Origin: Salinivirgaceae bacterium | GTDB lineage: Bacteria; Bacteroidota; Bacteroidia; Bacteroidales; Salinivirgaceae | Reading direction: 5' to 3' | Assembly: GCA_035407925.1 (NCBI GenBank) | Contig: DAOOBP010000002.1 | Location: 3,010 to 67,009 of the forward strand | Length of the DNA: 64,000 nucleotides | Shown: in pieces, positions 50,640 through 63,221 of the stretch | How the letters are laid out: each line of letters begins with the position of its first letter | How positions within the stretch are numbered: the first letter of the stretch is position 1 | Notes under the pieces: generated by a model | The model's database searches: none | What the model saw: the letters and a program-made list of their open reading frames with translations, nothing else | Told to the model about the DNA's origin: nothing | Made by a program: the position numbers and the translations under genes

Positions 50640-51197
50640 ATGTCCGAAGAAAAATTAATAGAAAAGATACTTTCTGGTGATAAAGAGGCATTTCGCTTGC
50701 TGATGGAAAAATACCAACAACAAGTGTTTCACGTGGCAATCGGTTTTGTTCACTCACGGCAGGACGCGGAGGATATTACACAAGAGGTTTTTATTCGGGT
50801 CTATCGCTCACTGAGTTCATTTAAGGAGAAATCGCTTTTTTCCACGTGGCTATATCGCATTACGCTAAATACTTCCATTAACTATATTAACAAAAACAAA
50901 AGGCGGAATTTACTTACTAACGCCAGCAATAGCCTGATGAGTTTGCTAAACAAAAGCAACGAGGAAAAAGACGCTCATCAGCAACTTGAAGCTACAGAGA
51001 TAGAAAAAAGCATACAAAATGCTATCGACGGATTGCCCGAAAAACAACGTAAAGCCTTTATATTGAGCAAATACGAAGATTTGTCACAACGAGAAATTGC
51101 CGAAATAATGCAAACCTCTGAAGGGGCTGTAGAGCAACTCTTGGTGCGCGCAAAAAAAAGTTTGCAAAAAAAATTGGCTTATCTCGTAGGAAAATAA
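50640..51197 (+). CDS. ECF-type RNA polymerase sigma-70 family factor
   Basis: 185 aa. Region 2 is DAEDITQEVFIRVY..FSTWLYRITLN. Region 4 is LSQREIAEIMQTSEGAVEQLLVRAKKSL. Confidence 0.9.
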   Translation: MSEEKLIEKILSGDKEAFRLLMEKYQQQVFHVAIGFVHSRQDAEDITQEVFIRVYRSLSSFKEKSLFSTWLYRITLNTSINYINKNKRRNLLTNASNSLMSLLNKSNEEKDAHQQLEATEIEKSIQNAIDGLPEKQRKAFILSKYEDLSQREIAEIMQTSEGAVEQLLVRAKKSLQKKLAYLVGK

Positions 51198-51231
51198 AAA
51201 ATTAATTGTCTAATGATATAAAAGACGAAAG

Positions 51232-51549
51232 TTGAAAAATTATAAAAATATGAAAATCGATAATTACATAGATGATTTTATTCGCAAAGAGAAAGAGGAA
51301 CAAGTCAACCCATATCTTGCAACACGAGTATTAGCAAAGTTAGAGGAAAACAATGAAGCCGTAGTTATTGGAACAATAGCTCCGATATGGAAAAAATTGG
51401 CAGTTGCCGCCAGCTTTGCTTTAGTAATTGCAGTAGGTTTTGGATTGGGAAGTATGGTAAAAGGCGATAAAGAGTACATATCTATAAATATTAACGACTC
51501 ACAACTTGAAAATCTAAACCTTTATACAATGATTGACTATGACGAATAA
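51232..51549 (+). CDS. small single-pass membrane protein, putative anti-sigma factor
   Basis: Directly downstream of the ECF sigma gene. One TM helix (LAVAASFALVIAVGFGLG). The probable ATG start is at 51250. Confidence 0.45.
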   Translation: MKNYKNMKIDNYIDDFIRKEKEEQVNPYLATRVLAKLEENNEAVVIGTIAPIWKKLAVAASFALVIAVGFGLGSMVKGDKEYISININDSQLENLNLYTMIDYDE

Positions 51550-52090
51550 AAACAAAATATTAGTTAGGATTATCGTCTTACTTGCGATACTAAACTTGAC
51601 GACAATCATCTCCATCCTACATCATAGATATAAAGATAAGCAAGCTACTGAAACCGTGATTGTCACAGGAGAAGGACAAAATCCACTTAGCGGAAGGTTC
51701 TTTATGCAGGAGGTGGGATTTGACGACGAACAAATGGAACAATTCAGGCAAATAAACCGAAAATTTAAGCCAAAATCTAATCAAATAATTTTGCAAATGG
51801 ACAGTATTAAAGTGTTGATATTTGATGAGTTAAACAAACAAAATGTCGATACAACAAGACTAAAACAACTAAACACAAGATTTGGAGAATTACACGCAGA
51901 GCTTAAAGATGAAACCAACAACTTTTACCTAAAATTAAAAGAAATTTCAAACACAGAGCAAACAGAAAAACTAAAAAACGCCTTTAAACCACTCTTCTAT
52001 AAGGACAATGCTATTCACAGAGGCAGAGGAAGTTTCGGCAGACAAAATCAATTTTATAAAAGAGAAATTCAAAATAAAAACAACAATTAA
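51533..52090 (+). CDS. Spy/CpxP-like (LTXXQ-type) periplasmic protein
   Basis: 185 aa with an N-terminal anchor. Helical repeats with FDDEQMEQFRQI and NTEQTEKLKNAF resemble LTxxQ motifs. 17-nt overlap with the upstream gene. Confidence 0.5.
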   Translation: MTMTNKNKILVRIIVLLAILNLTTIISILHHRYKDKQATETVIVTGEGQNPLSGRFFMQEVGFDDEQMEQFRQINRKFKPKSNQIILQMDSIKVLIFDELNKQNVDTTRLKQLNTRFGELHAELKDETNNFYLKLKEISNTEQTEKLKNAFKPLFYKDNAIHRGRGSFGRQNQFYKREIQNKNNN

Positions 52091-52104: not shown

Positions 52105-52524
52105 ATGAAAACAACAGTAATTACAATTGCACTTGCAATGATGACCGCAGTAGCTTTCGGAAAAGAGGATCAACCTACAAAAGCTAACGAAAAAGTTCAG
52201 ACAGAAAAAAGAGTTCAAACAGAGAACAAAGCTCAAACTCAAAGAGGTCCAAATTTCGTTGATAAAAACAACAATGGAATATGCGATAATTTTGAAGATG
52301 GAACTCGCCCTGGACGTGGTCAGGGAAGAAACGCCAAAGGAGGGAATGCCAAAGGAAGATTCTTTGTGGATAAAGATAACGACGGCATTTGCGACAACTA
52401 CCAAAGTGGAAATCGTCAAGGTCGAGGCAAACGATTTGGCAGAAGAGGTCAGGGACAAGGACAAGGTCCGAACTTTATAGACAAAAACAACAACGGCGTC
52501 TGTGATCATCGAGAAAATAAATAA
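52105..52524 (+). CDS. secreted Gly/Arg/Gln-rich protein with three F(V/I)DK(N/D)N(N/D)G(I/V)CD repeats
   Basis: 139 aa with signal peptide MKTTVITIALAMMTAVAFG. Repeats are FVDKNNNGICDNFEDG, FVDKDNDGICDNYQSG and FIDKNNNGVCDHREN, separated by GRGQG-type linkers. D-x-N/D-x-D-G resembles EF-hand / thrombospondin type 3 calcium loops. Confidence 0.7.
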   Translation: MKTTVITIALAMMTAVAFGKEDQPTKANEKVQTEKRVQTENKAQTQRGPNFVDKNNNGICDNFEDGTRPGRGQGRNAKGGNAKGRFFVDKDNDGICDNYQSGNRQGRGKRFGRRGQGQGQGPNFIDKNNNGVCDHRENK

Positions 52525-52544: not shown

Positions 52545-52572
52545 TTAGGGGACAGTTCGTCCCCTAATTTTT
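52545..52572 (+). terminator. intrinsic terminator after the ECF module
   Basis: Perfect 9-bp stem ttaggggac / gtcccctaa, 5-nt loop, followed by TTTTT. Confidence 0.75.
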
Positions 52573-52599: not shown

Positions 52600-53217
52600 A
52601 TGACAAAAAGTATAAACTTTTTCTTGAAAGCAGGTTTAATAATTTTATTGACAATTAATTCCATTGCTGGATTTTCTTATAATACTACTGAACTCACAGC
52701 TTCTGAAAAAGAGGGGATTCTACTAATGCGTGAAGAAGAGAAACTGGCTCACGATGTGTATAGTTTTTTCGCCGAAAAATATGATATCCCGATTTTTAGA
52801 AATATCAAACAAAGCGAAGTAAGGCACCAAAAATCAATGATTTGGCTAATGGAAAAGTACAACATTGCAGATCCTTCATTTGAGGAGCAAGGGAAATTTC
52901 ATAACAAGGAACTACAAAAACTGTACGATAAGTTGACAGCGCAAGGGAACACACTTATTGAAGCCTTGAAGATAGGCGCTTACATAGAAGATTTGGATAT
53001 TTTTGACTTAAAAAAACTAATAAAAGAGACTGACAATAAGGACATTCTACAGGTTTACAACAGGTTATTGTGGGGATCCGAAAATCATTTCAAAGCTTTT
53101 ACACGTAATCTTTCAAGCAGGGGCGTTGAATATAAGCCTCAGTTTTTAACAAAGGCAGAGATGAACATAATTTTAAACAAAATGGCAAAAAAAAATAGAA
53201 TTAGAAACAGAAAATAA
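52600..53217 (+). CDS. DUF2202-type ferritin-like protein, secreted
   Basis: 205 aa. LTASEKEGILLMREEEKLAHDVY...NIKQSEVRHQKSMIWLMEKY matches the MREEEKLARDVY / SEQxH pattern I recall for DUF2202. Confidence 0.7.
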   Translation: MTKSINFFLKAGLIILLTINSIAGFSYNTTELTASEKEGILLMREEEKLAHDVYSFFAEKYDIPIFRNIKQSEVRHQKSMIWLMEKYNIADPSFEEQGKFHNKELQKLYDKLTAQGNTLIEALKIGAYIEDLDIFDLKKLIKETDNKDILQVYNRLLWGSENHFKAFTRNLSSRGVEYKPQFLTKAEMNIILNKMAKKNRIRNRK

Positions 53218-53289: not shown

Positions 53290-53535
53290 ATGAGGGTCAG
53301 AAAAAACATAGCAATTAGCGAAAACGGTTTTATCTTTAATCCGCTGACAGGCGATAGTTTCAGTGTAAACGAAACAGGCGTTTTCATTCTCCAAAAATTA
53401 AAAGATGGCGAAAATGAAGAAACAATTATCCGGAATTTGATGGATGAATACGAATTAGACGCTTCTACTGCTGAAAAAGATTTTAATGATTTCTTATCCT
53501 TGCTGAAAAGCTTTCAATTGGTTACCAATGAATAA
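53290..53535 (+). CDS. PqqD-family protein (RiPP-recognition-element fold), stand-alone
   Basis: 81 aa. ENGFIFNPLTGDSFSVNETGVFILQKLKDGENEETIIRNLMDEYELDASTAEKDFNDFLSLL follows the PqqD pattern (..N..TG....LN.TG..I...L.DG.S.EEI...L...Y.VD...A..D...F...L). It ends ...QLVTNE. 8-nt overlap with the next gene. Confidence 0.8.
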   Translation: MRVRKNIAISENGFIFNPLTGDSFSVNETGVFILQKLKDGENEETIIRNLMDEYELDASTAEKDFNDFLSLLKSFQLVTNE

Positions 53536-54577
53536 GAGAAAAATTACTGTAGCAGTTACCGGACTGAATAACATCGACAGTCCTGGACCGGGTATCCCCG
53601 TTATTCGAGGATTGAAAGAGAGTGAAACCTTAGACGTTCGCATCGTAGGCTTATCATATGAGACTCTCGAACCCGGAATTTATATGCACAACTTGGTTGA
53701 CAAAGTCTATCAGTTGCCCCTACCAACAGCTGGTTCAGCCGTGCTAAAAGAGAGACTAAGATACATCGCAAGTCAGGAGAAAATAGATGTGTTGATACCC
53801 AATTTTGATGCTGAATTACACAATTTCATCAAAATTCAGGACGATCTAAAGTCGGAATTAAATATTGCCACATTTCTGCCATCACAAGCTATCTTCGATG
53901 AACGACAGAAGTCTGAATTAGGCAAATTTGGCGAAAAATACGGCATAAAAGTTCCTGAAAGCCACATGATTAATCAGGTGTTGGAAATCAGAAAATTGGA
54001 AGGGAGCATGAATTATCCCTTGGTTATAAAGGGGCGTTATTACGATGCCTACATTGCTTTGTCATACGAGCAGGCAAGTTCGTTTTTTTACAAAGTTGTG
54101 GCAAAATGGGGTTATCCTGTTATTGTTCAGGAGTTTGTAACAGGTACAGAGGTAAACGTTACTGCTCTCGGCGACGGCAAAGGTAGTTGTATAGGCGCTG
54201 TGGCTATGAGAAAATTGTATATCACAGACAAAGGGAAGGCGTGGTCGGGTATTTCGTTAGAAGATGACGAACTGATGGCGATTTCCCGAAGAGTAATTGA
54301 AAACAGCAAGTGGCGCGGAGGCTGCGAGCTGGAGTTTATAAAAACTAAAAAAGATGAGTACTACCTACTCGAAATGAACCCACGTTTCCCAGCTTGGGTC
54401 TATCTTGCAAATGGCTGTGGGCAAAATCACCCCGAAGCGCTTGTAAAAATGGCTCTCGGCGAAGAAGTTAAACCTTTTACCGATTATCAGAGCGGTAAAA
54501 TGTTTATTCGCTATTCTTATGACCAAATTGTGGATATATCAGAGTTTCAGCAGATTTCTACAATGGGTGAAAGATAA
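53528..54577 (+). CDS. ATP-grasp ligase
   Basis: 349 aa. YPLVIKGRYYDAY, VQEFVTGTEVNVTAL and LLEMNPRFPAWV are the canonical ATP-grasp K-loop, E-x-(F/Y)-x-x-G-x-E and E-x-N-P-R blocks. Confidence 0.8.
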   Translation: MNKRKITVAVTGLNNIDSPGPGIPVIRGLKESETLDVRIVGLSYETLEPGIYMHNLVDKVYQLPLPTAGSAVLKERLRYIASQEKIDVLIPNFDAELHNFIKIQDDLKSELNIATFLPSQAIFDERQKSELGKFGEKYGIKVPESHMINQVLEIRKLEGSMNYPLVIKGRYYDAYIALSYEQASSFFYKVVAKWGYPVIVQEFVTGTEVNVTALGDGKGSCIGAVAMRKLYITDKGKAWSGISLEDDELMAISRRVIENSKWRGGCELEFIKTKKDEYYLLEMNPRFPAWVYLANGCGQNHPEALVKMALGEEVKPFTDYQSGKMFIRYSYDQIVDISEFQQISTMGER

Positions 54578-54580
54578 ATT

Positions 54581-54681
54581 CAATTAGCAATGCTTGCATT
54601 GAACTTGTCGAAGTGAACAATTATACCTTATTGAAAATAAGCCTACTAAATTATTATTTCTAATTTCTAACTTCTAATTTT
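54581..54681 (+). repeat. Copy of intergenic repeat family R2, inside the operon
   Basis: caattagcaatgcttgcattgaacttgtcgaagtgaacaatt...ttatttctaatttctaacttctaatttt. Same architecture as 38174-38285. Confidence 0.6.
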
Positions 54682-54683
54682 AT

Positions 54684-56030
54684 ATGAAACCAAATTACGA
54701 AAGTCCAGTAATTAATAAATTAAGTGCCGGAATGATGAACAAATTCGGCAGCAGAACAGAATATACACCTGTAAAATTCATTGATAATGTGGCAGTTGCC
54801 GATTTAATGGACAAATATGGCTCGCCCCTATTCGTTATCAGCGAAAAAACTATCCGACAAAATTACCAAAAAGCATTGAAAGCTTTTAAAATGCGTTATC
54901 CTAAAGTGCAGTTTGCATGGAGCTACAAAACAAATTATTTAGATGCAGTTTGTAAGGTTTTCCATCAAGAAGGCAGCTGGGCGGAAGTTGTTTCAGGTTT
55001 TGAGTACCAGAAAGCTGTTCGCAACGGTGTTCCCGGAAATCTCATTATTTTCAACGGACCAGATAAATCCAAAGAGGATTTAATTATGGCAATTAAAAAC
55101 CGCTCGCTTATTCATATCGATCATTTTGATGAGCTATATATGCTTATTGAAATTTTGGAAGATATGGAAGAGACAAAAGCACGTGTAGCAATTCGCGTAA
55201 ACATGGACACTGGCGTATATCCACAGTGGGACAGGTTTGGCTTTAACTACGAAAACGGTCAAGCATGGAATGCGATTGTAAAAATTATTGCACAAGAGAA
55301 ACTGCAATTTGAGGGTCTCCATTGTCATATTGGAACATATATGCTAACAGCAAACGCTTATGCAGTAGCTGCCCGGAAAATGTGCGAACTTGCTTTAGCT
55401 TATTCCAACACAACTGGAAGAAATTTAAAATATATCGATATGGGTGGTGGATTTTGCTCATCGAACACGCTAAAAGGCTCTTATTTACAGGGAGCTGACA
55501 TTATCCCCACTTTTGATGACTACGCCGAAGCAATTACTAGTACCATTCTGCAATTTGGTTTTCGTCCCGATGAGCTACCACTGCTGATTTTGGAAACAGG
55601 GCGAGCGCTGATTGACGAAGCTGGTTATCTGTTAGGAACGGTTTTAGCTACAAAACGTCTAGCCGATGGTCGTAGAGCTACTGTACTTGATACAGGAGTA
55701 AATATAATGTTTACATCGTTCTGGTATAATCACCGTGTATCGCCGGCTCAGGATTTTACACAACATGCTGAGGATACTACACTTTACGGTCCGTTATGTA
55801 TGAATATCGACTGTCTGCGTGAAAGTGTAGTTTTGCCACTTCTAAAAAAGGGAGACCGTATTGTTATTCATGAAGTTGGAGCATACAATATGACACAATG
55901 GATGCAGTTTATCACTCTGAGACCTAACGTGGTAATGATTGACACAACAGGGAATGTGCATTTAATTCGCAAGCAAGAAACAGTAAATACTATTGTGGAT
56001 TGTGAAATTGTGCCGGAACATCTAAAGTAA
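54684..56030 (+). CDS. fold-type III PLP-dependent decarboxylase (Orn/DAP/Arg decarboxylase family)
   Basis: 448 aa. FAWSYKTNY (PLP lysine), HCHIGT, IDMGGGF, LETGRALI and GPLCMNID(C) match the K / HxHxGS / DxGGG / EPGR / G..C..D blocks of the family. Confidence 0.85.
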   Translation: MKPNYESPVINKLSAGMMNKFGSRTEYTPVKFIDNVAVADLMDKYGSPLFVISEKTIRQNYQKALKAFKMRYPKVQFAWSYKTNYLDAVCKVFHQEGSWAEVVSGFEYQKAVRNGVPGNLIIFNGPDKSKEDLIMAIKNRSLIHIDHFDELYMLIEILEDMEETKARVAIRVNMDTGVYPQWDRFGFNYENGQAWNAIVKIIAQEKLQFEGLHCHIGTYMLTANAYAVAARKMCELALAYSNTTGRNLKYIDMGGGFCSSNTLKGSYLQGADIIPTFDDYAEAITSTILQFGFRPDELPLLILETGRALIDEAGYLLGTVLATKRLADGRRATVLDTGVNIMFTSFWYNHRVSPAQDFTQHAEDTTLYGPLCMNIDCLRESVVLPLLKKGDRIVIHEVGAYNMTQWMQFITLRPNVVMIDTTGNVHLIRKQETVNTIVDCEIVPEHLK

Positions 56031-56061
56031 TTTAAGATACAATAACCTCTAACATAACATA

Positions 56062-58233
56062 ATGCGAAATAGAGTCTCCCTCAAATCCATCGCTAATCTG
56101 CACCTGAAAGCAACCTACAACAGCTACGGACAGATTTTCTTTTCCATGCAGACTTGGCTTGCGGTGACAATACTGATTTTAAGCATATTGGATGTGCGAG
56201 TTGGACTTGGGGGATTGGTTGCGGTAATTATCACCAATTTACTATCTCATTTGCTTGGTTTTTCTAAAGAGAAAATAGCTACAGGTGTTTACGGTTTCAA
56301 TGCTGTTTTCCTGGGAATGAGTCTGATGTTTAAGTTTTATTTTAACTCGTCATTTTTGCTCTTTTACATTTTTGGTATAGTACTCTCATTTTTGCTGACA
56401 GTTCTGCTCGAAACAGTGCTTTCAAAAAAAGGTCTGCCAGTACTCACTTTGCCTTTTGTTATCACAAGTTTTATTATTGACTTGTCTTTCAGGAGCTTTG
56501 CTAATATTGAGCTAATTACTCCGTTTGACCGATTTACAGTTTTGTTAGCCAAGCAAATGAGTGTCCCGTGGTACGGTTTAGTGCATTCGTTAGATAATAT
56601 TCAACTTCCGCAACTTATTTACTACTACTTTAAAACGCTTGCTTCAATCTTCTTTACAGATAGTATTTTAGTTGGGATATTGATTTTTGTTGCACTACTC
56701 ATACATTCCCGCATAAAATCGACTGTTGCATTTCTCGGATTTTTTTGTGCTTTTGCAGTAAGTAAAATAGTGGGTTTTGATTTGCAACAGCTTACCACCA
56801 ACCTTGCAGGAACAAACTTTATTTTCTGGGGTATAGCTATTGGAAGTTTTTTCATTATTCCTAATATTTACAGCTATCTGCTTGTGGCAGGGCTTACACC
56901 TGTTCTTTTCCTTCTGTATGCCAGTATCGAAAAGATAATCGCAGGGACAGGATTGTCTTCATACACATTGGCTTTCAGCTTGTTAGCCATAGTGTTGATT
57001 TATGTGTTTATCCATCGCACATTAAATAAGTATTTTATATTTCCGGTGATACAGTACTACAATCCCGAAAAGACGGTGTACAAAAGTGTGAATTTTTTAC
57101 AACGTTTTGGAAACGATTTGCCATTTAAAATGAAACTTCCATTTTTGGGTGAATGGACTGTAAGTCAAGGATATAATGGAAAAATCACCCACTTGGGCGA
57201 ATGGGGGAGTGCACTCGATTTTGTAATAACCGATGATGATAAAAGAACCTACTCATTCCCTGGAACAAAAAAAGATAATTTTTACTGTTATAATAAGCCT
57301 GTACTGGCTCCGGCTGATGGTTATGTATATCAAATCAGCAATATTACCGAGGACAACGAAATAAATGACGTAAATACTAATAAAAATTGGGGTAACACAA
57401 TTATTATCAATCACTTAAATGGACTTTACACACAGATCAGTCATTTGAAAAAAGATAGTTTTAAAGTCAATATCGGAGATTATATAACCAAGGGGACTGT
57501 AATTGCATCGTGTGGAAATTCTGGTCGTTCACCCGAGCCACACCTACACTTTCAAATACAGTTAAGCCCCGAAATTGGAGCGAAAACGCACCCCTATCCT
57601 TTCGGTTACTATTTTGAAAAAACTAATGGTAAACCAATTTTACGAATTGGAGAAGTACCAACCGAAAATTCCATTATTTACAATGTGAATAATTTGGATT
57701 TGATATACACCGCTTTCAACTTTAAGCCTGGTAAAGATCTGAACGTCAACTGTAACGGCGACAAATTAAGTTGGACAGTTGCAACTAATGCGTACAATCA
57801 AAGTTATATTTTCTGCGAAAAATCAAAGTCAACTGCATACTTTGTTAATGACGGCGCTATGTTTTACTTCACCGACTTTGAAGGGCGCAAAAACTCGGCG
57901 CTTTACACGTTTTATCGCAGTTGCTTTAGACTTTTGCTTGCGGGAGAACGAGGCATTGAAGTTAAAGACAGTATTCCTATATCAAAAGAGTTGCCACCCT
58001 CTCTCAAATGGCTACAGGACTTTATTGCCCCGATAATTTTGCTCAGTCGGGTAAATTATTCATCAAAATTAAACTATATGGACAATCCGTATTATCCAGA
58101 AAATGTAGAGTTTGTAAACCTAGTTGAAGTTAAATCCTTCTGGAAAAAAGAACTACCTACAGAATACTCAGTAGCAATATCACATTCAAAAATTGAAATC
58201 AAATCGAAGAGTCAGAGTTTATGTATCGAATAG
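56062..58233 (+). CDS. fusion: urea-transporter-like polytopic membrane domain + M23 metallopeptidase domain + ~200-aa uncharacterised C-terminal region
   Basis: 723 aa. N-terminal part: YNSYGQIFFS, GVYGFNAVFLGMSL and about 10 TM helices (UT-family pattern). Residues ~350-520: SALDFV..., PVLAPADGYV, GNTIIINHLNGLYTQISHL, GNSGRSPEPHLHFQ (M23 H-x-x-x-D / H-x-H). Confidence 0.75.
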   Translation: MRNRVSLKSIANLHLKATYNSYGQIFFSMQTWLAVTILILSILDVRVGLGGLVAVIITNLLSHLLGFSKEKIATGVYGFNAVFLGMSLMFKFYFNSSFLLFYIFGIVLSFLLTVLLETVLSKKGLPVLTLPFVITSFIIDLSFRSFANIELITPFDRFTVLLAKQMSVPWYGLVHSLDNIQLPQLIYYYFKTLASIFFTDSILVGILIFVALLIHSRIKSTVAFLGFFCAFAVSKIVGFDLQQLTTNLAGTNFIFWGIAIGSFFIIPNIYSYLLVAGLTPVLFLLYASIEKIIAGTGLSSYTLAFSLLAIVLIYVFIHRTLNKYFIFPVIQYYNPEKTVYKSVNFLQRFGNDLPFKMKLPFLGEWTVSQGYNGKITHLGEWGSALDFVITDDDKRTYSFPGTKKDNFYCYNKPVLAPADGYVYQISNITEDNEINDVNTNKNWGNTIIINHLNGLYTQISHLKKDSFKVNIGDYITKGTVIASCGNSGRSPEPHLHFQIQLSPEIGAKTHPYPFGYYFEKTNGKPILRIGEVPTENSIIYNVNNLDLIYTAFNFKPGKDLNVNCNGDKLSWTVATNAYNQSYIFCEKSKSTAYFVNDGAMFYFTDFEGRKNSALYTFYRSCFRLLLAGERGIEVKDSIPISKELPPSLKWLQDFIAPIILLSRVNYSSKLNYMDNPYYPENVEFVNLVEVKSFWKKELPTEYSVAISHSKIEIKSKSQSLCIE

Positions 58234-59558
58234 TTTTTAGTTTGATAGCGATGTCTGTTTTTTGGACAGTAAAGGGGCAGGATAAATCTGCAGCGAATGC
58301 TTTAGATAAAAATCAGAAAGTAGCGTATTACGACAGCCTTACTTTTGCTCTGTATAGTAGAGCAGACTATAAGTCTCTGATAACCAAAACAAAAGAAGCC
58401 GAACGATTGGGTGTTACCTTTCAATATTTGAATTACCGCAAAGCTATAGCATATTACGAACTGAAAAACTATGCAAAAGCTGTAAAGTACTACGAAAAAG
58501 CCCTTTATGATGTGCCTTATGACATGTTCTTAAAAGAGAGTTTATATTCGGCTTATATTCTAAGCGGATTAGACGCAAAAGCCGCTATTTTCGCCAAAAC
58601 ACTTCCAATAATCAGTCAAAATAAAGTTGGTTTTTCCCCTTTGTTCGTTAGTTTTGTTCAGCTATACGGTGGGTACACTTTTAGCGACAATGACGAAAAA
58701 ATGAGAAACATCATAGCCAATCTCGACTCTATAAATCAATATCAGGATATGATATCTGGCGGAGCGATGTTTGGACTAAATATTTCCGACAACGTGAAAC
58801 TTATCGCAAGCTACAACCTGTTTAACACAAAGTTCGAACGTTTCGCTCAAAATAGACTGCAACACACCGATTTATTGTCGCAACATCAACTCAATATCGG
58901 TACGGAAATTTATTTGAAAAATAACTTTTCACTCGGCTTTACTGGTGGTTTTTATGCTATAGAGAAAAACCACAAACCTACTGCTCAAATTTCAGGTAAT
59001 GGACCCGGACAGGGACGAAGACGAACAATATCATCTTCTCAATCAACAGATTACAACTTGTCTGCTTTACTCTTTTTTAATAAACGTTTTACCTGCGTGT
59101 CGCCCGAAATTTCTTTCGCATACTCCGATTTCGCCTTTTCCAATCAACTACAATCCAAGTTGCAACTGACTTATTACCCGTTTGGGAATTTGAATTTTTA
59201 TGGAATAACTTCAGGAGCCATAATTCTAGATAGTAATAAAAATAGAGGAGAACAAACGGTTTTTTCTCAAAGTTTAGGTGTTAAATTATTTGGAAGAATG
59301 TGGTTAGATGGCATGATTAGTGTTGGTAATCATCTGAATTACATAACAGAACGCTCATTTATTGTGTACGACACCTACGACCCAATTATGTTTATATCAA
59401 GTTTTAATCTCTCTTATTATTTCAAAAAAAATACAGTTTCAGCAACTTACTCATGGTCACAAAAAGAGGGCTGGGCGTTCACAAACTATTACGCGAATTT
59501 AATAAAGTATAAGTATAATAATCAATTAGTTAATCTTACAATAAAATGGAATCTTTAA
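58221..59558 (+). CDS. secreted protein with TPR-like N-terminus and beta-rich C-terminal part, candidate outer-membrane protein
   Basis: 445 aa with a signal peptide. It contains YYELKNYAKAVKYYEKAL (TPR-like). The C-terminal ~300 aa has an alternating hydrophobic pattern. 13-nt overlaps on both sides. Confidence 0.35.
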   Translation: MYRIVFSLIAMSVFWTVKGQDKSAANALDKNQKVAYYDSLTFALYSRADYKSLITKTKEAERLGVTFQYLNYRKAIAYYELKNYAKAVKYYEKALYDVPYDMFLKESLYSAYILSGLDAKAAIFAKTLPIISQNKVGFSPLFVSFVQLYGGYTFSDNDEKMRNIIANLDSINQYQDMISGGAMFGLNISDNVKLIASYNLFNTKFERFAQNRLQHTDLLSQHQLNIGTEIYLKNNFSLGFTGGFYAIEKNHKPTAQISGNGPGQGRRRTISSSQSTDYNLSALLFFNKRFTCVSPEISFAYSDFAFSNQLQSKLQLTYYPFGNLNFYGITSGAIILDSNKNRGEQTVFSQSLGVKLFGRMWLDGMISVGNHLNYITERSFIVYDTYDPIMFISSFNLSYYFKKNTVSATYSWSQKEGWAFTNYYANLIKYKYNNQLVNLTIKWNL

Positions 59559-60160
59559 AGAAAAATGTTGCAATATTCATGTTGCTTGTTGTGTTCGGAG
59601 TTTCATCCTCGGCACAGGTCAATCCCTCCAAAGTTTTTGAAAACAGTTATGCCAAAGAAGCCTCTGGTGATTATCAAGGCGCTATTAATGACCTTGTTGG
59701 GTTAAATGGTTTCGATTATCACAAATCACTTCGATTGGGCTGGCTCTACTATTTGAGTAAAAATTTTGATACCAGCATTAACTATTACCAGCAAGCTGTA
59801 AAGCTACGTCCTAAAGCTGTTGAGGCATTGCTTGGACTTTGTAATCCGCTCGAAGCGCTTGGAAAAATCGACCAGCTTGAAGCCACCTACAAAAAAATCC
59901 TCGCTATTGACCCGATGAACTCAAAGATAAACTACGCTCTCGGCAATATCTATTACTATCAGAAAAATTTTGTTTTGGCTGAGAAACACTTCGATTTGGT
60001 AATTGGCTTATACCCTTTTGACTACTACTCCAATCTAATGGCAGGCTGGACAAAATATTTCCTTGATAAGAAAAACGAGGCTAAAATCCTGTTTAACACC
60101 GTTTTAATAATATCCCCAACCGACAGCTCGGCTAAAGAGGGATTGGCTTTGATAAAATAG
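59546..60160 (+). CDS. secreted tetratricopeptide-repeat protein
   Basis: 204 aa with a signal peptide. Repeated A..YYQQAVKL.P / LGNIYYYQKNFVLAEKHF TPR units. Confidence 0.7.
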   Translation: MESLKKNVAIFMLLVVFGVSSSAQVNPSKVFENSYAKEASGDYQGAINDLVGLNGFDYHKSLRLGWLYYLSKNFDTSINYYQQAVKLRPKAVEALLGLCNPLEALGKIDQLEATYKKILAIDPMNSKINYALGNIYYYQKNFVLAEKHFDLVIGLYPFDYYSNLMAGWTKYFLDKKNEAKILFNTVLIISPTDSSAKEGLALIK

Positions 60161-60216
60161 AAGTTTTCATTTAGTTACGTTCGATTAACTCAACTAAATG
60201 AAAATTCCCGGACTGC

Positions 60217-60258
60217 AAATTCCTAAAACTTTCAAAAATTGGAAAGTTTTAGGAATTT
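60217..60258. terminator. 17-bp perfect palindrome, likely bidirectional terminator ending the 53.3-60.2 kb operon
   Basis: aaattcctaaaactttc-aaaaattg-gaaagttttaggaattt. A related hairpin recurs at 61711-61746. Confidence 0.55.
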
Positions 60259-60274
60259 TATCTATCTTTACGCC

Positions 60275-61486
60275 ATGAAGATAATTCCACGTAAAAATTA
60301 TTTAGAAACACTTCGTATTCTAAAGGACAAGAATTTAATTAAAGTTGCTACAGGTGTCAGACGTTGTGGCAAATCAACCCTAATGGTGCAGTTTCAGGAG
60401 TTGCTACGCAGAGAAAATCCAAATGTTTCCATTCTGGCAATCAACTTGGATATGCCAGACTTTAGGTTCTTGGCGGAGAAACATTGGAAGGAAATTTATG
60501 ATTACATCATAAAAAATCTCAAAAAAAACGTAACAAACTATGTGTTTATAGATGAGGTGCAAAATGTTCCAGAGTTTGAAAAGCTGTTAGAGGGTTTGTA
60601 CGTTCATCCAAACATTGACTTGTACGTTACTGGTTCAAACGCATTTTTATTGTCAAGCGAACTGGCTACTTTGCTAACCGGAAGAGCTTATGAAATAAAC
60701 ATATTACCTTTCTCTTTTGCTGAATATTTAGAGTTTACCGACAAAACCACGAACCCCGACCGTGCCTTTGCCGACTATGTAAATACCGGCGGTTTCCCAG
60801 AAGCTGTAAGACTTTCAGCCGATGGAAATCACTTTGCAAATGAGTATCTGCAAATGCTTTTTAAAAACATTTACGAGAACGACATCTCGAAGCGTTACAC
60901 AATATATGCCGAGGAATCATACAAGGAGGTGGTAAACTTCTTGATAGATTCAATTGGGTCAAGTGTTTCGGCAGGAAATATTGCTAAAGTCCTGACAGCA
61001 AACAAAAAATCGATAGATAACAAAACTGTCTCTAAGTACACCGACACTTTAGTTGAAGCCTACCTGTTTTATAAGGTAAATCGCTACAACATAAAAGGTA
61101 AACAGCATTTAGCCACTTTGGAAAAATACTATTTAGTTGATTTAGGTTTTCGCAATACACTGTTAGGCAAAGAGTTGGCAAGCGATGCAGGGCATTTGCT
61201 CGAAAACGTAATTTATATGGAATTAAAACGCCGAAACAACCGAGTGTGGATAGGAAAAACCGGCAATTTAGAGGTTGACTTTGTTGTTCGTGATAACCAA
61301 GGTTTTACTCAGTACATACAAGTTGCACAAACAGTACAAAATACCAAAACTTTAGAACGTGAGTTGGCTCCACTTAACAGCATATCAGACCACCACGAAA
61401 AACTTTTAATTACAATGGATTACGATACAGGAACGTACAACGGAATAAAAAAGATTAACGCAATAGATTGGCTATTAGGCAATTAG
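60275..61486 (+). CDS. AAA-type ATPase with DUF4143-like C-terminal domain
   Basis: Start taken at MKIIPRKNYLETL, because the track start at 60239 lies inside the hairpin. Walker A is GVRRCGKST and Walker B is YVFIDEVQ. Its last codons and stop (..LLGN*) lie in CAATTAGCAATG repeat sequence. Confidence 0.75.
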   Translation: MKIIPRKNYLETLRILKDKNLIKVATGVRRCGKSTLMVQFQELLRRENPNVSILAINLDMPDFRFLAEKHWKEIYDYIIKNLKKNVTNYVFIDEVQNVPEFEKLLEGLYVHPNIDLYVTGSNAFLLSSELATLLTGRAYEINILPFSFAEYLEFTDKTTNPDRAFADYVNTGGFPEAVRLSADGNHFANEYLQMLFKNIYENDISKRYTIYAEESYKEVVNFLIDSIGSSVSAGNIAKVLTANKKSIDNKTVSKYTDTLVEAYLFYKVNRYNIKGKQHLATLEKYYLVDLGFRNTLLGKELASDAGHLLENVIYMELKRRNNRVWIGKTGNLEVDFVVRDNQGFTQYIQVAQTVQNTKTLERELAPLNSISDHHEKLLITMDYDTGTYNGIKKINAIDWLLGN

Positions 61487-61892: not shown

Positions 61893-63221
61893 ATGTTATT
61901 ATCAGCGACAACTAATGGTGTATCGACCATGCCTCTTTGGGCTATTATCCCTTTTGTGTTAATGTTATTGTGTATTGCACTTGGTCCTTTGTTCTTTGAA
62001 CATTGGTGGGAGAAAAACAAAAACAAATTACTTGTCTCTTTAATGCTGGGCATTCCCGTTGCAGGATATCTGATAGCGCAAAAATTACCCGATCTTTTAG
62101 CGCATCAATTGCTATTTGACTATGTTCCATTTATAATTTTATTAGGAGCTTTATTTGTAATAACTGGCGGTATCCACTTGAAAGGTGATATTGAAGCAAA
62201 ACCATGGATAAACACAACTTTTCTGGGGATTGGCGCTATTTTAGCTTCTTTTATGGGGACAACCGGCGCTGCAATGCTTTTAATTCGTCCGGTAATTAAA
62301 ACAAACAGCCAAAGAAAATTTAAAGTTCACACAATTTTATTTTTTATTGCTATTGTAGCAAATGCTGGTGGATTACTTACTCCACTTGGCGACCCACCAC
62401 TTTTCTTGTTATATCTAAGAGGTGCTGAATTTACTTGGTTTTTTCATATGGTACCAGAGTGGGCATTTGTAAACGCCTTGCTATTAATAATTTACTTTAT
62501 TGTTGATTCATATTATTACAAAAAAGAACCTGTAGAAAACATCAAATTCGACAAAGCCAATATTGTACCATTAAGTTTACAAGGAAATATTAACTTTCTT
62601 TTCTTAGCCGGTGTTGTTGCTTCTGTTGCATTCCTAAACGAACATTATTTACCTATTATGAAAGAAAATGCTTGGGCAGGATTTATTAGAGAAGGAGCTA
62701 TTGTTGCTATGGTTATTTTGTCTTTGGTATTCACAAAAAAACCAGTACGAGAAGCAAACAAATTTTCGTGGGGACCAATTTTAGAAGTAGCGTTCTTATT
62801 CTTAGGAATTTTCATTACTATGATACCCGCTTTGCAATACTTAAAAGCGCATGCTCATGATTTAGGAATAAGTTCAAACGCTCAATACTTCTATGCAACT
62901 GGAAGTTTAAGCGCTTTCTTAGACAATGCTCCTACTGCTTTGTCTTTCTACAACTTAGCTCTTGGAATGAACGAAGGCGGCGGAGCTATTACCGGCGCTG
63001 GCTATGTTGCAGGTATTGAAGAGATGATTTTAACTGCAATTTGTTTAGGAGCGGTACTTTTTGGCGCTATGACATATATTGGCAACGGTCCAAACTTCAT
63101 GGTTAAAGCTATTGCTGAAGAAAATAAAATTAAAATGCCAAGTTTCTTTGGTTATATGATTAAATTCTCTTTGATAATTTTATTACCTATTTATATTTTG
63201 GTTCAACTTATTTTCTTGTAG
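61893..63221 (+). CDS. ArsB/NhaD-superfamily ion transporter (Na+/H+ antiporter-like or CitMHS-like)
   Basis: 442 aa with about 11-12 TM helices. Blocks such as GGLLTPLGDPPLFL and GNGPNFMVK are typical of this permease superfamily. Confidence 0.6.
   Translation: MLLSATTNGVSTMPLWAIIPFVLMLLCIALGPLFFEHWWEKNKNKLLVSLMLGIPVAGYLIAQKLPDLLAHQLLFDYVPFIILLGALFVITGGIHLKGDIEAKPWINTTFLGIGAILASFMGTTGAAMLLIRPVIKTNSQRKFKVHTILFFIAIVANAGGLLTPLGDPPLFLLYLRGAEFTWFFHMVPEWAFVNALLLIIYFIVDSYYYKKEPVENIKFDKANIVPLSLQGNINFLFLAGVVASVAFLNEHYLPIMKENAWAGFIREGAIVAMVILSLVFTKKPVREANKFSWGPILEVAFLFLGIFITMIPALQYLKAHAHDLGISSNAQYFYATGSLSAFLDNAPTALSFYNLALGMNEGGGAITGAGYVAGIEEMILTAICLGAVLFGAMTYIGNGPNFMVKAIAEENKIKMPSFFGYMIKFSLIILLPIYILVQLIFL

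Follow-up and report, generated by a model that had tools for sequence, protein, structure and literature searches.

Recognition elements of peptides that are made on ribosomes and modified after translation (RRE domains of RiPP pathways) are used universally to trace modified-peptide pathways, the assumption being that their ligand is a separate precursor peptide. A six-gene operon in a 64,000-nt stretch of a Salinivirgaceae bacterium (assembly GCA_035407925.1, contig DAOOBP010000002.1, positions 3,010 to 67,009; this whole stretch is called the window here) raises the question of what such a domain recognises where no precursor lies beside it. The operon encodes a PqqD-fold protein of the RRE type, an ATP-grasp ligase, a pyridoxal phosphate (PLP) decarboxylase, a channel of the urea transporter (UT) family fused to an M23 peptidase, an outer-membrane beta-barrel and a secreted tetratricopeptide repeat (TPR) protein (Table 1). 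The peptide partner of the PqqD protein is probably the decarboxylase's own N-terminal tail, because this tail has a recognition motif of the lasso peptide type and covaries with the PqqD protein. An earlier note on this DNA, made without database searches, had placed the substrate outside the operon as one option; its scaffold-like idea stands, whereas the location it gave probably does not.

A recognition motif on the decarboxylase

PqqD, ATP-grasp, PLP decarboxylase, UT/M23 fusion and TPR domains had all been named in the earlier note, and profile searches bore out each of these calls. In particular, the 81-aa protein is a true RRE fold (PF05402, E=4e-13). A profile of its family matches the lasso B1 proteins TbiB1 (5v1u, E=4.6e-14) and TfuB1 (6jx3, E=5.6e-11), and far more weakly the true PqqD (3g2b, E=0.009); the NCBIfam lasso_PqqD models match the protein below their lasso cut-offs (45.8 vs 70).

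Such a relation suggests a classical modified-peptide pathway, in which PqqD would present an unlinked precursor, the decarboxylase would tailor it and M23 would remove the leader; indeed, the combination of recognition protein, peptidase and ATP-dependent amide ligase recalls a lasso machinery in its outlines. For comparison, one genome per species was scanned, yielding 80 loci onto which the six proteins were mapped by tblastn, and remote versions were reached through representatives of ATP-grasp clusters. As in the window, where none had been seen beside the PqqD gene, no precursor-peptide open reading frame (ORF) is conserved in these loci: clustering of ORFs of 12-100 aa within the cassette and up to 1.5 kb around it, in about 80 loci, gave no conserved small ORF. 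Those that recur near the cassette are only out-of-frame shadows of neighbouring genes, and several loci leave no intergenic room for a precursor ORF. A peptide cannot pass a UT pore, a sirtuin (SIR2) domain replaces M23 in other lineages, and the motif that covaries with PqqD is already found on the decarboxylase. The recognition fold and its affinity to lasso B1 notwithstanding, a classical pathway is thus improbable.

The acidic C-terminus of the PqqD protein, the other substrate envisaged before, does not hold up either, since it varies in length and sequence and sometimes contains no acidic residue. Likewise, a LysW-like attachment site at this end was considered and rejected; the tail is not conserved, and some of the proteins end in ...KLIN or ...NVM.

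The decarboxylase, in turn, begins with a family-specific extension of about 30 residues, which is conserved as strongly as the catalytic core. The diaminopimelate decarboxylase (DAPDC) of M. jannaschii aligns to the enzyme from residue 32 onward only, FslC does not align to the tail, and a comparison of the tail with PDB chains revealed no meaningful match (best E 0.54, unrelated). The peptide carrying Tyr5, Pro8 and Ile10 is MKPNYESPVINKLSAGMMNKFGSRTEY. Counted over 71 distinct tails, position 5 is Tyr in 60 and Phe in 11, Pro8 is invariant (71/71) and Ile10 nearly so (69/71), while further downstream Lys20 and Phe21 are each present in 69 tails and Gly22 in 70; K2, E6, R7, K12, L13, G16 and N19 are additional conserved positions. 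The resulting motif, [Y/F]E[R/S]PxI, fits the type [Y/W]xxPx[L/V/I/F/A], which is bound by discrete lasso-type RRE proteins and used by other recognition-domain pathways as well (PMC13381572; PMC13622209). It is kept as YxxPx[ILV] in the remote variants L086 (YEKPRL), L088 (YVKPFI), L089 (YVRPSI, located in a fusion linker), L091 (YQPPLI) and L094 (YEPPRV), and the segment of L087 reads YEPMRL. The main family, L086, L087, L088 and L094 have a Lys at +15 from the tail Tyr, L091 at +14. We also considered that, once the leader was removed, a lasso-like ring could form on the decarboxylase, and dropped this idea: the spacing does not fit, M23 is not universal, and residues 27-34 align to DAPDC and belong to the enzyme fold.

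In the most remote variant (L090, 4356-4595), the decarboxylase has no tail, and a 79-aa ORF between the ATP-grasp and decarboxylase genes carries AYSPPTI (YxxPxI). This ORF could be a free-standing tail or a frameshift artefact in a low-quality contig.

Tail and PqqD protein vary together. Pairing tail residue 5 with PqqD residue 64, the Asp of an EKD segment in helix 3, revealed 66 Y/D, 7 F/Y and 4 F/S combinations among 77 loci and no mixed pair. All loci with Phe at tail position 5 (F-type) fall into a single clade when ATP-grasp plus decarboxylase are used for a neighbour-joining tree. Outside this clade, 6 columns of PqqD, 102 of the decarboxylase and 55 of ATP-grasp are at least 97% conserved, and solely PqqD Asp64 and decarboxylase Tyr5 among all of these are fully replaced within it. 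For LppB, a hydrogen bond between the RRE Asp D70 and the leader residue Tyr-16 has been shown experimentally (PMC13381572). Based on the identity of the motif, the covariation of Tyr5 with Asp64 and this Asp-Tyr precedent, binding of the decarboxylase tail by PqqD appears quite likely.

The conserved cassette, its enzymes and its channel

The six genes of the window form a compact group. Six ORFs had been described on one strand, packed with overlaps of 8 nt (PqqD/ATP-grasp), 13 nt and 13 nt and gaps of 106 nt and 31 nt, and the ORF listing returned the same coordinates and junctions, all on the + strand. Completeness classes were assigned to 42 loci with sufficient flanking DNA, of which 36 contain the complete, colinear cassette; the gene set is therefore co-conserved and syntenic and not the product of chance adjacency. 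Five further loci hold only PqqD, ATP-grasp and decarboxylase, and in one only PqqD and ATP-grasp are found nearby. The six genes are a conserved functional unit, which is also self-contained, because its upstream and downstream neighbours change between lineages.

Carriers were found in Bacteroidales, Flavobacteriales, Chitinophagales, Sphingobacteriales, Cytophagales, Ignavibacteria and Kapaibacteria, i.e., in Bacteroidota and Ignavibacteriota, and variants also in high-GC lineages; this taxonomy was taken from record titles, mostly labels of metagenome-assembled genomes, and is to be read with caution. One of the carriers, Petrimonas sulfuriphila DSM 16547 (L018), is in culture. Outside the closest relatives of the window, tblastn identities to the window proteins are highest for the decarboxylase (60-70%) and ATP-grasp (53-72%), followed by PqqD (34-55%), the TPR protein (35-51%) and UT-M23 (34-45%). 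The barrel reaches about 25% and is colinear in most loci. In a public collection, at least 6235 homologues of ATP-grasp were found by a search that scored the 8000 candidates sharing most words, together with 1948 homologues of UT-M23.

Remote variants show how the cassette can be rearranged. All six genes are present in L085/L086, where ATP-grasp is 49% identical, and L088 has the two modules of the cassette, enzyme trio and envelope genes, in reversed order. L087 and L094 display a TPR gene, PqqD, a tandem double ATP-grasp, decarboxylase and a UT::SIR2 fusion, while L091 combines a PqqD::ATP-grasp fusion (P0216/L091) with UT::SIR2::GNAT. In L089, an ATP-grasp::decarboxylase fusion stands with a separate PqqD and no adjacent UT protein; L090 (28% identity) consists of PqqD, ATP-grasp and decarboxylase followed by a GNAT gene and an NAD-synthase-like gene. 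In loci of type II, signal-bearing or anti-sigma-like TPR proteins precede PqqD. As these remote variants keep PqqD, ATP-grasp and decarboxylase, this trio is the invariant core, usually joined to a UT-family protein with a C-terminal amide hydrolase (M23 or sirtuin) and to a secreted TPR protein. One of the trio-only loci (L048, 12548-13735) has an M20 peptidase directly 3' of the decarboxylase, which is not conserved in sister loci. M20 is the family of the ArgE, DapE and LysK deacylases, and the enzyme is a possible alternative for release.

The ATP-grasp ligase matches PF15632, PF02655 and PF02786. Its Lys168 is invariant, and Glu282, Asn284 and Arg286 of an E-x-N-P-R segment are found in at least 90% of the sequences; presumably, they bind ATP and Mg, as is usual in ATP-grasp enzymes. 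The substrate of the ligase cannot be read from homology, since among solved structures it is closest to 2pn1, a structural-genomics protein without known function, and to carbamoyl phosphate synthetase (CPS) and biotin carboxylases. A paralogue with 39% identity (L092, 10001-11047) has neither PqqD nor decarboxylase beside it and is located in a glycan-modification cluster with MBOAT, glycosyltransferase, epimerase and DegT aminotransferase genes, so that the wider ATP-grasp family also seems to serve the amidation of small molecules or glycans.

The decarboxylase shows Pfam matches to Orn_Arg_deC_N and Orn_DAP_Arg_deC, and its best PDB match is FslC, an N-citrylornithine decarboxylase (7kh2, E=3e-57), followed by the archaeal DAPDC of M. 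jannaschii (E=1e-50), with BtrK at E=4e-26. Together with the model scores, these matches place it next to BtrK and FslC, the former already named in the earlier note, rather than with the housekeeping LysA. The latter was rejected on a TIGR01048 score of 218.3 (cut-off 297.9) and on motif differences from DAPDC; the FslC model NF041039 scores the protein at 231 (cut-off 500). CESSD of M. jannaschii DAPDC is replaced by CMNID, for which FslC has CMQHD, and the Arg in DAPDC's MNDMMRPAMY aligns to a Thr, FslC likewise being without that Arg. We assume that the CESSD residues and this Arg hold the distal centre of diaminopimelate (DAP). If so, the enzyme is unlikely to act on free DAP and more likely to act on an amino acid that carries a substituent at its far end.

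The UT-M23 protein consists of a UT part (residues ~1-320; PF03253, E=7e-44), an M23 part (~360-530; Peptidase_M23, E=7e-17) and a beta-rich C-terminal domain (540-723). In its predicted model, with a predicted local distance difference test (pLDDT) value of 85, the UT part resembles the Desulfovibrio urea channel dvUT (3k3f) with a template-modelling (TM) score of 0.84 in Foldseek, and the M23 part is structurally like DipM, lysostaphin and Csd; the C-terminal ~180 residues revealed no match in Pfam and no separate one among the top Foldseek matches. An alignment of 36 homologues showed invariant His377, Asp386, His461, His494 and His496, which we take to be the zinc ligands and catalytic histidines as in LytM-type enzymes, with a long H-x8-D spacing in the first motif. 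Invariant as well are the pore segments of UT, one LPxxTxPF-like and one G-x-N. The UT equivalog TIGR03441 scores 99 against a cut-off of 274.6, and the cassette has no urease or urea-metabolism genes. A 2026 survey of urea transporter evolution lists UT-M23 as the common bacterial UT combination but gives it no genomic context or function, and does not mention the SIR2 variants, the operon or the link to PqqD, ATP-grasp and decarboxylase (PMC12998343). Full-text literature searches found no published account of the operon and a single mention of the UT-M23 fusion, without context. In a Kapaibacterium locus (L001, 6696-9740), a 1014-aa protein with three M23 domains resembling that of UT-M23 is encoded; its gene ends 20 nt 5' of PqqD, and the type IX secretion tail domain matches the protein weakly, with an E-value of 8e-4 that does not reach the Pfam cut-off.

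On which side of the membrane the M23 domain lies is decisive for its role. UT proteins have both termini inside the cell. The N-terminus of UT-M23 carries four Lys/Arg and no acidic residue, and the linker after the last membrane helix carries six Lys/Arg. The orthologous position elsewhere holds UT::SIR2 or UT::SIR2::GNAT, with canonical sirtuin motifs in the SIR2 domains (GAGxSxxxGxPD, TQNVDGLH and a CxxC...CxxC zinc site); SIR2 requires NAD+ and GNAT acetyl-CoA. Because of the basic flanks, the known position of UT termini and the presence of NAD+- or acetyl-CoA-needing domains in the same place, the M23 domain is predicted to be cytoplasmic, at odds with a trimming function in the periplasm. 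A function in anti-phage defence, raised by the SIR2 variants, was rejected: PADLOC gave no match for the six proteins or for UT::SIR2, and the sirtuin motifs are canonical.

The last two genes encode, as proposed before, a periplasmic TPR protein and an outer-membrane partner, the 'beta-rich' protein of the earlier note being the barrel. Its model (pLDDT 88) displays a signal peptide, TPR-like helices (23-136) and strands forming a barrel (143-445), with FadL, OmpG and TodX as top Foldseek matches. A TPR and barrel pair is shared with the exporters AlgK/AlgE, PgaA and BcsC. Taken with the likeness of M23 to peptidoglycan endopeptidases, this could speak for a periplasmic hydrolase in wall remodelling or for the poly-amide export through the UT domain that had been put forward. 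However, no polymer synthase or glycosyltransferase was found among the cassette proteins by profile searches, and the NCBIfam matches to PgaA and BcsC cover the TPR only and remain far under the cut-offs. The UT fold is that of a narrow urea-type channel with intact signature motifs, too narrow for a polymer; the positive-inside charge and the SIR2/GNAT replacements point to the cytoplasm, and the enzyme trio also occurs without the channel and envelope genes. Either envelope function is accordingly very improbable.

A possible pathway and its alternatives

The reading that we prefer, at a probability of roughly 0.4, is a two-module system with docking of the tail, tethered ligation and decarboxylation, and release coupled to a channel. 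Module 1 would be a cytoplasmic complex of the lasso-B1-like PqqD, ATP-grasp and the FslC/BtrK-like decarboxylase, three proteins that are linked by the PqqD::ATP-grasp and ATP-grasp::decarboxylase fusions. Instead of binding a separate precursor, PqqD would dock the [Y/F]ExPxI motif at the decarboxylase N-terminus onto the ligase and, by analogy with other RRE-guided enzymes, thereby bring the tail about 15 residues downstream, around Lys20, into the ATP-grasp active site. ATP-grasp would then join an amino acid, via a side-chain group, to the tail, possibly to Lys20, and the decarboxylase would strip the alpha-carboxylate of this tethered amino acid. Related enzymes act on comparable substrates, BtrK decarboxylating BtrI-bound glutamate and FslC N-acylated ornithine.

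Module 2, in the envelope, would comprise the UT channel with its cytoplasmic amide hydrolase, the periplasmic TPR protein and the outer-membrane barrel. The hydrolase (M23 here, a sirtuin elsewhere) would cut the amide at the channel mouth and regenerate the tail, and the freed small polar amine or amide would exit via the UT pore and then the barrel. The docking can be regarded with good confidence, the chemistry of the pathway with modest confidence. We propose only tentatively that the decarboxylase is its own carrier, with the tail as leader and Lys20 as attachment site, which unloads into the UT pore.

Motif and covariation support docking equally well if the tail does nothing but hold the decarboxylase on ATP-grasp, both enzymes acting on free small molecules. 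An acid and an amino acid could be ligated and then decarboxylated in the manner of FslA/FslC, or an amine made by the decarboxylase could be ligated; UT would export the small amide, with M23 or SIR2 in a side role, e.g., proofreading or activation. FslC, the closest decarboxylase, works on a free N-acyl amino acid, an ATP-grasp paralogue is located in a glycan cluster, and the high conservation of both enzymes across phyla (55-72%) is as expected for a fixed small substrate. This would, however, leave the conserved NKFG segment of the tail without explanation, and in the ATP-grasp::decarboxylase fusion, which keeps the motif and a separate PqqD, tethering of one enzyme to the other seems redundant. 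Furthermore, what accompanies the channel in its two variants is a peptidase or a protein-lysine deacylase rather than an amidase for small molecules. Mainly because such partners cut peptide amides, the tethered model is preferred over one with free substrates, and docking as the sole function of the tail is possible but rather doubtful.

The hydrolases could also act on the tail as a switch. According to this regulatory explanation, UT senses or conducts a solute, and the tail is altered or cut by M23 or by SIR2, the latter alone or together with GNAT, so that the enzyme complex is turned on or off. The UT protein of L091, combining a deacylase with an acetyltransferase, resembles a writer/eraser pair, the tail offers a conserved Lys, and extracytoplasmic function (ECF) sigma factors or LytTR regulators recur nearby. 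Nevertheless, cleavage by M23 is irreversible, whereas the action of SIR2 is reversible, an outer-membrane barrel and a periplasmic TPR protein that are colinear in most loci would be left unexplained, and we know of no evidence of ligand sensing by UT domains. Regulation of this kind therefore seems unlikely.

Coming back to the two-module system with a tethered substrate, several points weigh against it. As the F-type loci form one clade, their covariation represents about one evolutionary event, and a naive contingency statistic is overstated. Five Bacteroidota loci hold the enzyme trio without module 2 nearby, and the fusion of L089 has Arg at +15 and no adjacent UT protein. The L092 paralogue without PqqD makes free small-molecule substrates plausible for the ATP-grasp family. 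Finally, ligation, decarboxylation and hydrolysis would together yield merely a decarboxylated amino acid with ATP spent, which looks wasteful; because this minimal net reaction looks trivial, a further step or a non-obvious substrate is likely.

Flanking sequences, related systems and meaning

The coordinates of the cassette and of further features are compiled in Table 1.

Table 1. Features of the operon and its surroundings; positions refer to the window unless another locus is named.
Feature	Position	Strand	Length	Remarks
GC-rich hairpin with T-run, upstream of cassette	52545..52572	+		direct sequence inspection
DUF2202 gene, outside core	52600..53217	+		ferritin-like, secreted; PF09968, E=4.5e-51
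PqqD-fold recognition (RRE) protein	53290..53535	+	81 aa	Asp64 codon 53479-53481
ATP-grasp ligase	53528..54577	+	349 aa	
Fold-type III PLP decarboxylase	54684..56030	+	448 aa	FslC/DAPDC/BtrK-like
Decarboxylase N-terminal tail	54684..54776	+	residues 1-31	family-specific
Recognition-type motif Y5-E-S-P8-V-I10 in decarboxylase tail	54696-54713	+		
N19-K20-F21-G22 segment in decarboxylase tail	Lys20 codon 54741-54743	+		conserved
UT-family channel fused to M23 and C-terminal domain	56062..58233	+	723 aa	
Outer-membrane beta-barrel	58221..59558	+	445 aa	signal peptide and periplasmic TPR-like domain
Secreted (periplasmic) TPR protein	59546..60160	+	204 aa	TPR families; N-terminus reads as signal peptide
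First hairpin closing operon	60164-60204	+		
Second hairpin closing operon	60217-60258	+		17-bp palindrome
LytTR-type pair, locus L004	7756-9524			
LytTR-type pair, locus L030	8921-10634			
LytTR-type pair, locus L088	17368-20081			

Upstream of the cassette, the hairpin that had been called a strong terminator is present as TTAGGGGAC-AGTTC-GTCCCCTAA followed by TTTTT; it was seen by direct reading and is unlisted by the terminator scan. It sets an ECF module apart from the DUF2202 gene and the cassette, and DUF2202 is indeed the sole gene between this hairpin and PqqD. A DUF2202 gene precedes PqqD in 10 loci among the 84 that were compared; most of these are labelled Bacteroidales, and the gene is absent from other lineages. 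We regard it as a loosely associated neighbour; as the two are not separated by a hairpin, co-transcription with the cassette is possible.

At the other end, the first of two successive hairpins lies directly 3' of the stop codon of the TPR gene. The second, noted before as a perfect palindrome, forms 17 pairs with an 8-nt loop or, alternatively, 20-nt arms at 95%, and occurs once in the window (chance expectation 0). Its interpretation as a repeated mobile element was rejected, given the single copy in the window and its absence from all related loci. The ORF call of an AAA_14/DUF4143 ATPase gene, with a TTG start at 60239, overlaps the palindrome; an ATG at 60275 is more likely the true start of this gene. 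A CitMHS_2 family transporter (putative citrate or anion; 61893-63221, +) is located 1.7 kb 3' of the cassette and shows no sign of linkage. Rfam searches of the window and four loci found no riboswitch or other RNA element that would name a ligand.

The ECF module (50640-52090, +) begins with an ECF sigma factor gene (50640-51197), followed by a 105-aa ORF with a hydrophobic stretch that points to a membrane segment, and by one of 185 aa; neither ORF has a match in Pfam. Next to it, a secreted 139-aa protein (52105-52524, +) displays three F[VI]DKNNNG[IV]CD repeats with Gly/Arg/Gln-rich spacers between them and has no match in Pfam or NCBIfam. Judged from out-of-frame ORF shadows, its gene recurs 5' of DUF2202 in L005-L010. 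ECF sigma genes are also found near the cassette in L001 and, directly upstream and paired with an anti-sigma-like TPR protein, in L094. LytTR-type two-component pairs (His_kinase and Response_reg/LytTR) adjoin the cassette or lie near it in three unrelated loci (Table 1).

Compared to known systems, the cassette partly resembles the lasso B1, BtrJ/BtrK and FslC pathways and is a member of none of them. The lasso B1 proteins TbiB1 and TfuB1 are closest to PqqD by profile and by the NCBIfam lasso_PqqD models, the ligand motif is of the same type, and the covariation implies a Tyr-Asp pairing like that of D70 and leader Tyr-16 in LppB. In contrast to lasso pathways, none of the six proteins contains a B2 transglutaminase-fold protease or an Asn-synthetase-like cyclase, a precursor gene is missing, and the motif is placed at the N-terminus of a 448-aa enzyme. 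With RRE-dependent RiPP clusters in general, the operon shares the recognition domain, but a separate leader/core precursor was not found, and the leader-like motif is solely on the decarboxylase. Graspetide and microviridin pathways differ in that the ATP-grasp of the cassette matches PF15632 and CPS-like models, not graspetide models, and again in the missing precursor.

A further related system is butirosin BtrI/BtrJ/BtrK, with its pair of an ATP-grasp and a DAPDC-fold decarboxylase, the BtrK homologue, and with decarboxylation of an amino acid held by its side chain. The cassette, however, has no acyl carrier protein gene and no aminoglycoside genes, and the proposed tether would be an amide on the enzyme's own tail, not a thioester. 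Among named relatives, the decarboxylase scores best with FslC from the FslA/FslC pathway of Francisella rhizoferrin synthesis, an enzyme that decarboxylates an omega-acylated amino acid, and CM..D replaces the CES.D of DAPDC in both; here, the model score for FslC is below the cut-off, and no IucA/IucC-type synthetase for siderophores made independently of non-ribosomal peptide synthetases (NIS) is present in the cassette. The LysW/LysX system is similar in that an ATP-grasp loads an amino acid on a small handle and a hydrolase finally releases the product. It differs in the type of ATP-grasp, which is not RimK/LysX-like here, in the PqqD C-terminus, which is not conserved, and in polarity, the proposed Lys amine contrasting with the C-terminal Glu carboxylate of LysW. 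Borosin-type pathways have the precursor segment joined to the enzyme that modifies it, so that, as proposed for our operon, the substrate or recognition segment is part of a pathway enzyme; there, though, the modification is a methylation, the segment is located at the opposite terminus, no recognition domain takes part, and a peptide product is released.

Of the first interpretation as a whole, a scaffold-like pathway with an envelope conduit stands, while the PqqD C-terminus as substrate, a polymer passing the UT domain and periplasmic trimming do not. Recognition-domain-guided biosynthesis appears to occur here in a widespread form that has not been described, with the 'leader' being a portion of an enzyme; to our knowledge, no self-scaffolded export logic coupled to the release of a small amine or amide has been described. 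For the use of RRE domains in genome mining, it would be a widespread counter-example, as the ligand of its recognition domain seems to be an enzyme-borne motif. If this is true, a class of 'orphan' recognition proteins would be explained, and UT-family channels would serve the export of a synthesised product instead of the movement of urea. It would also point to a small amine or amide that is made by many environmental and digester bacteria.

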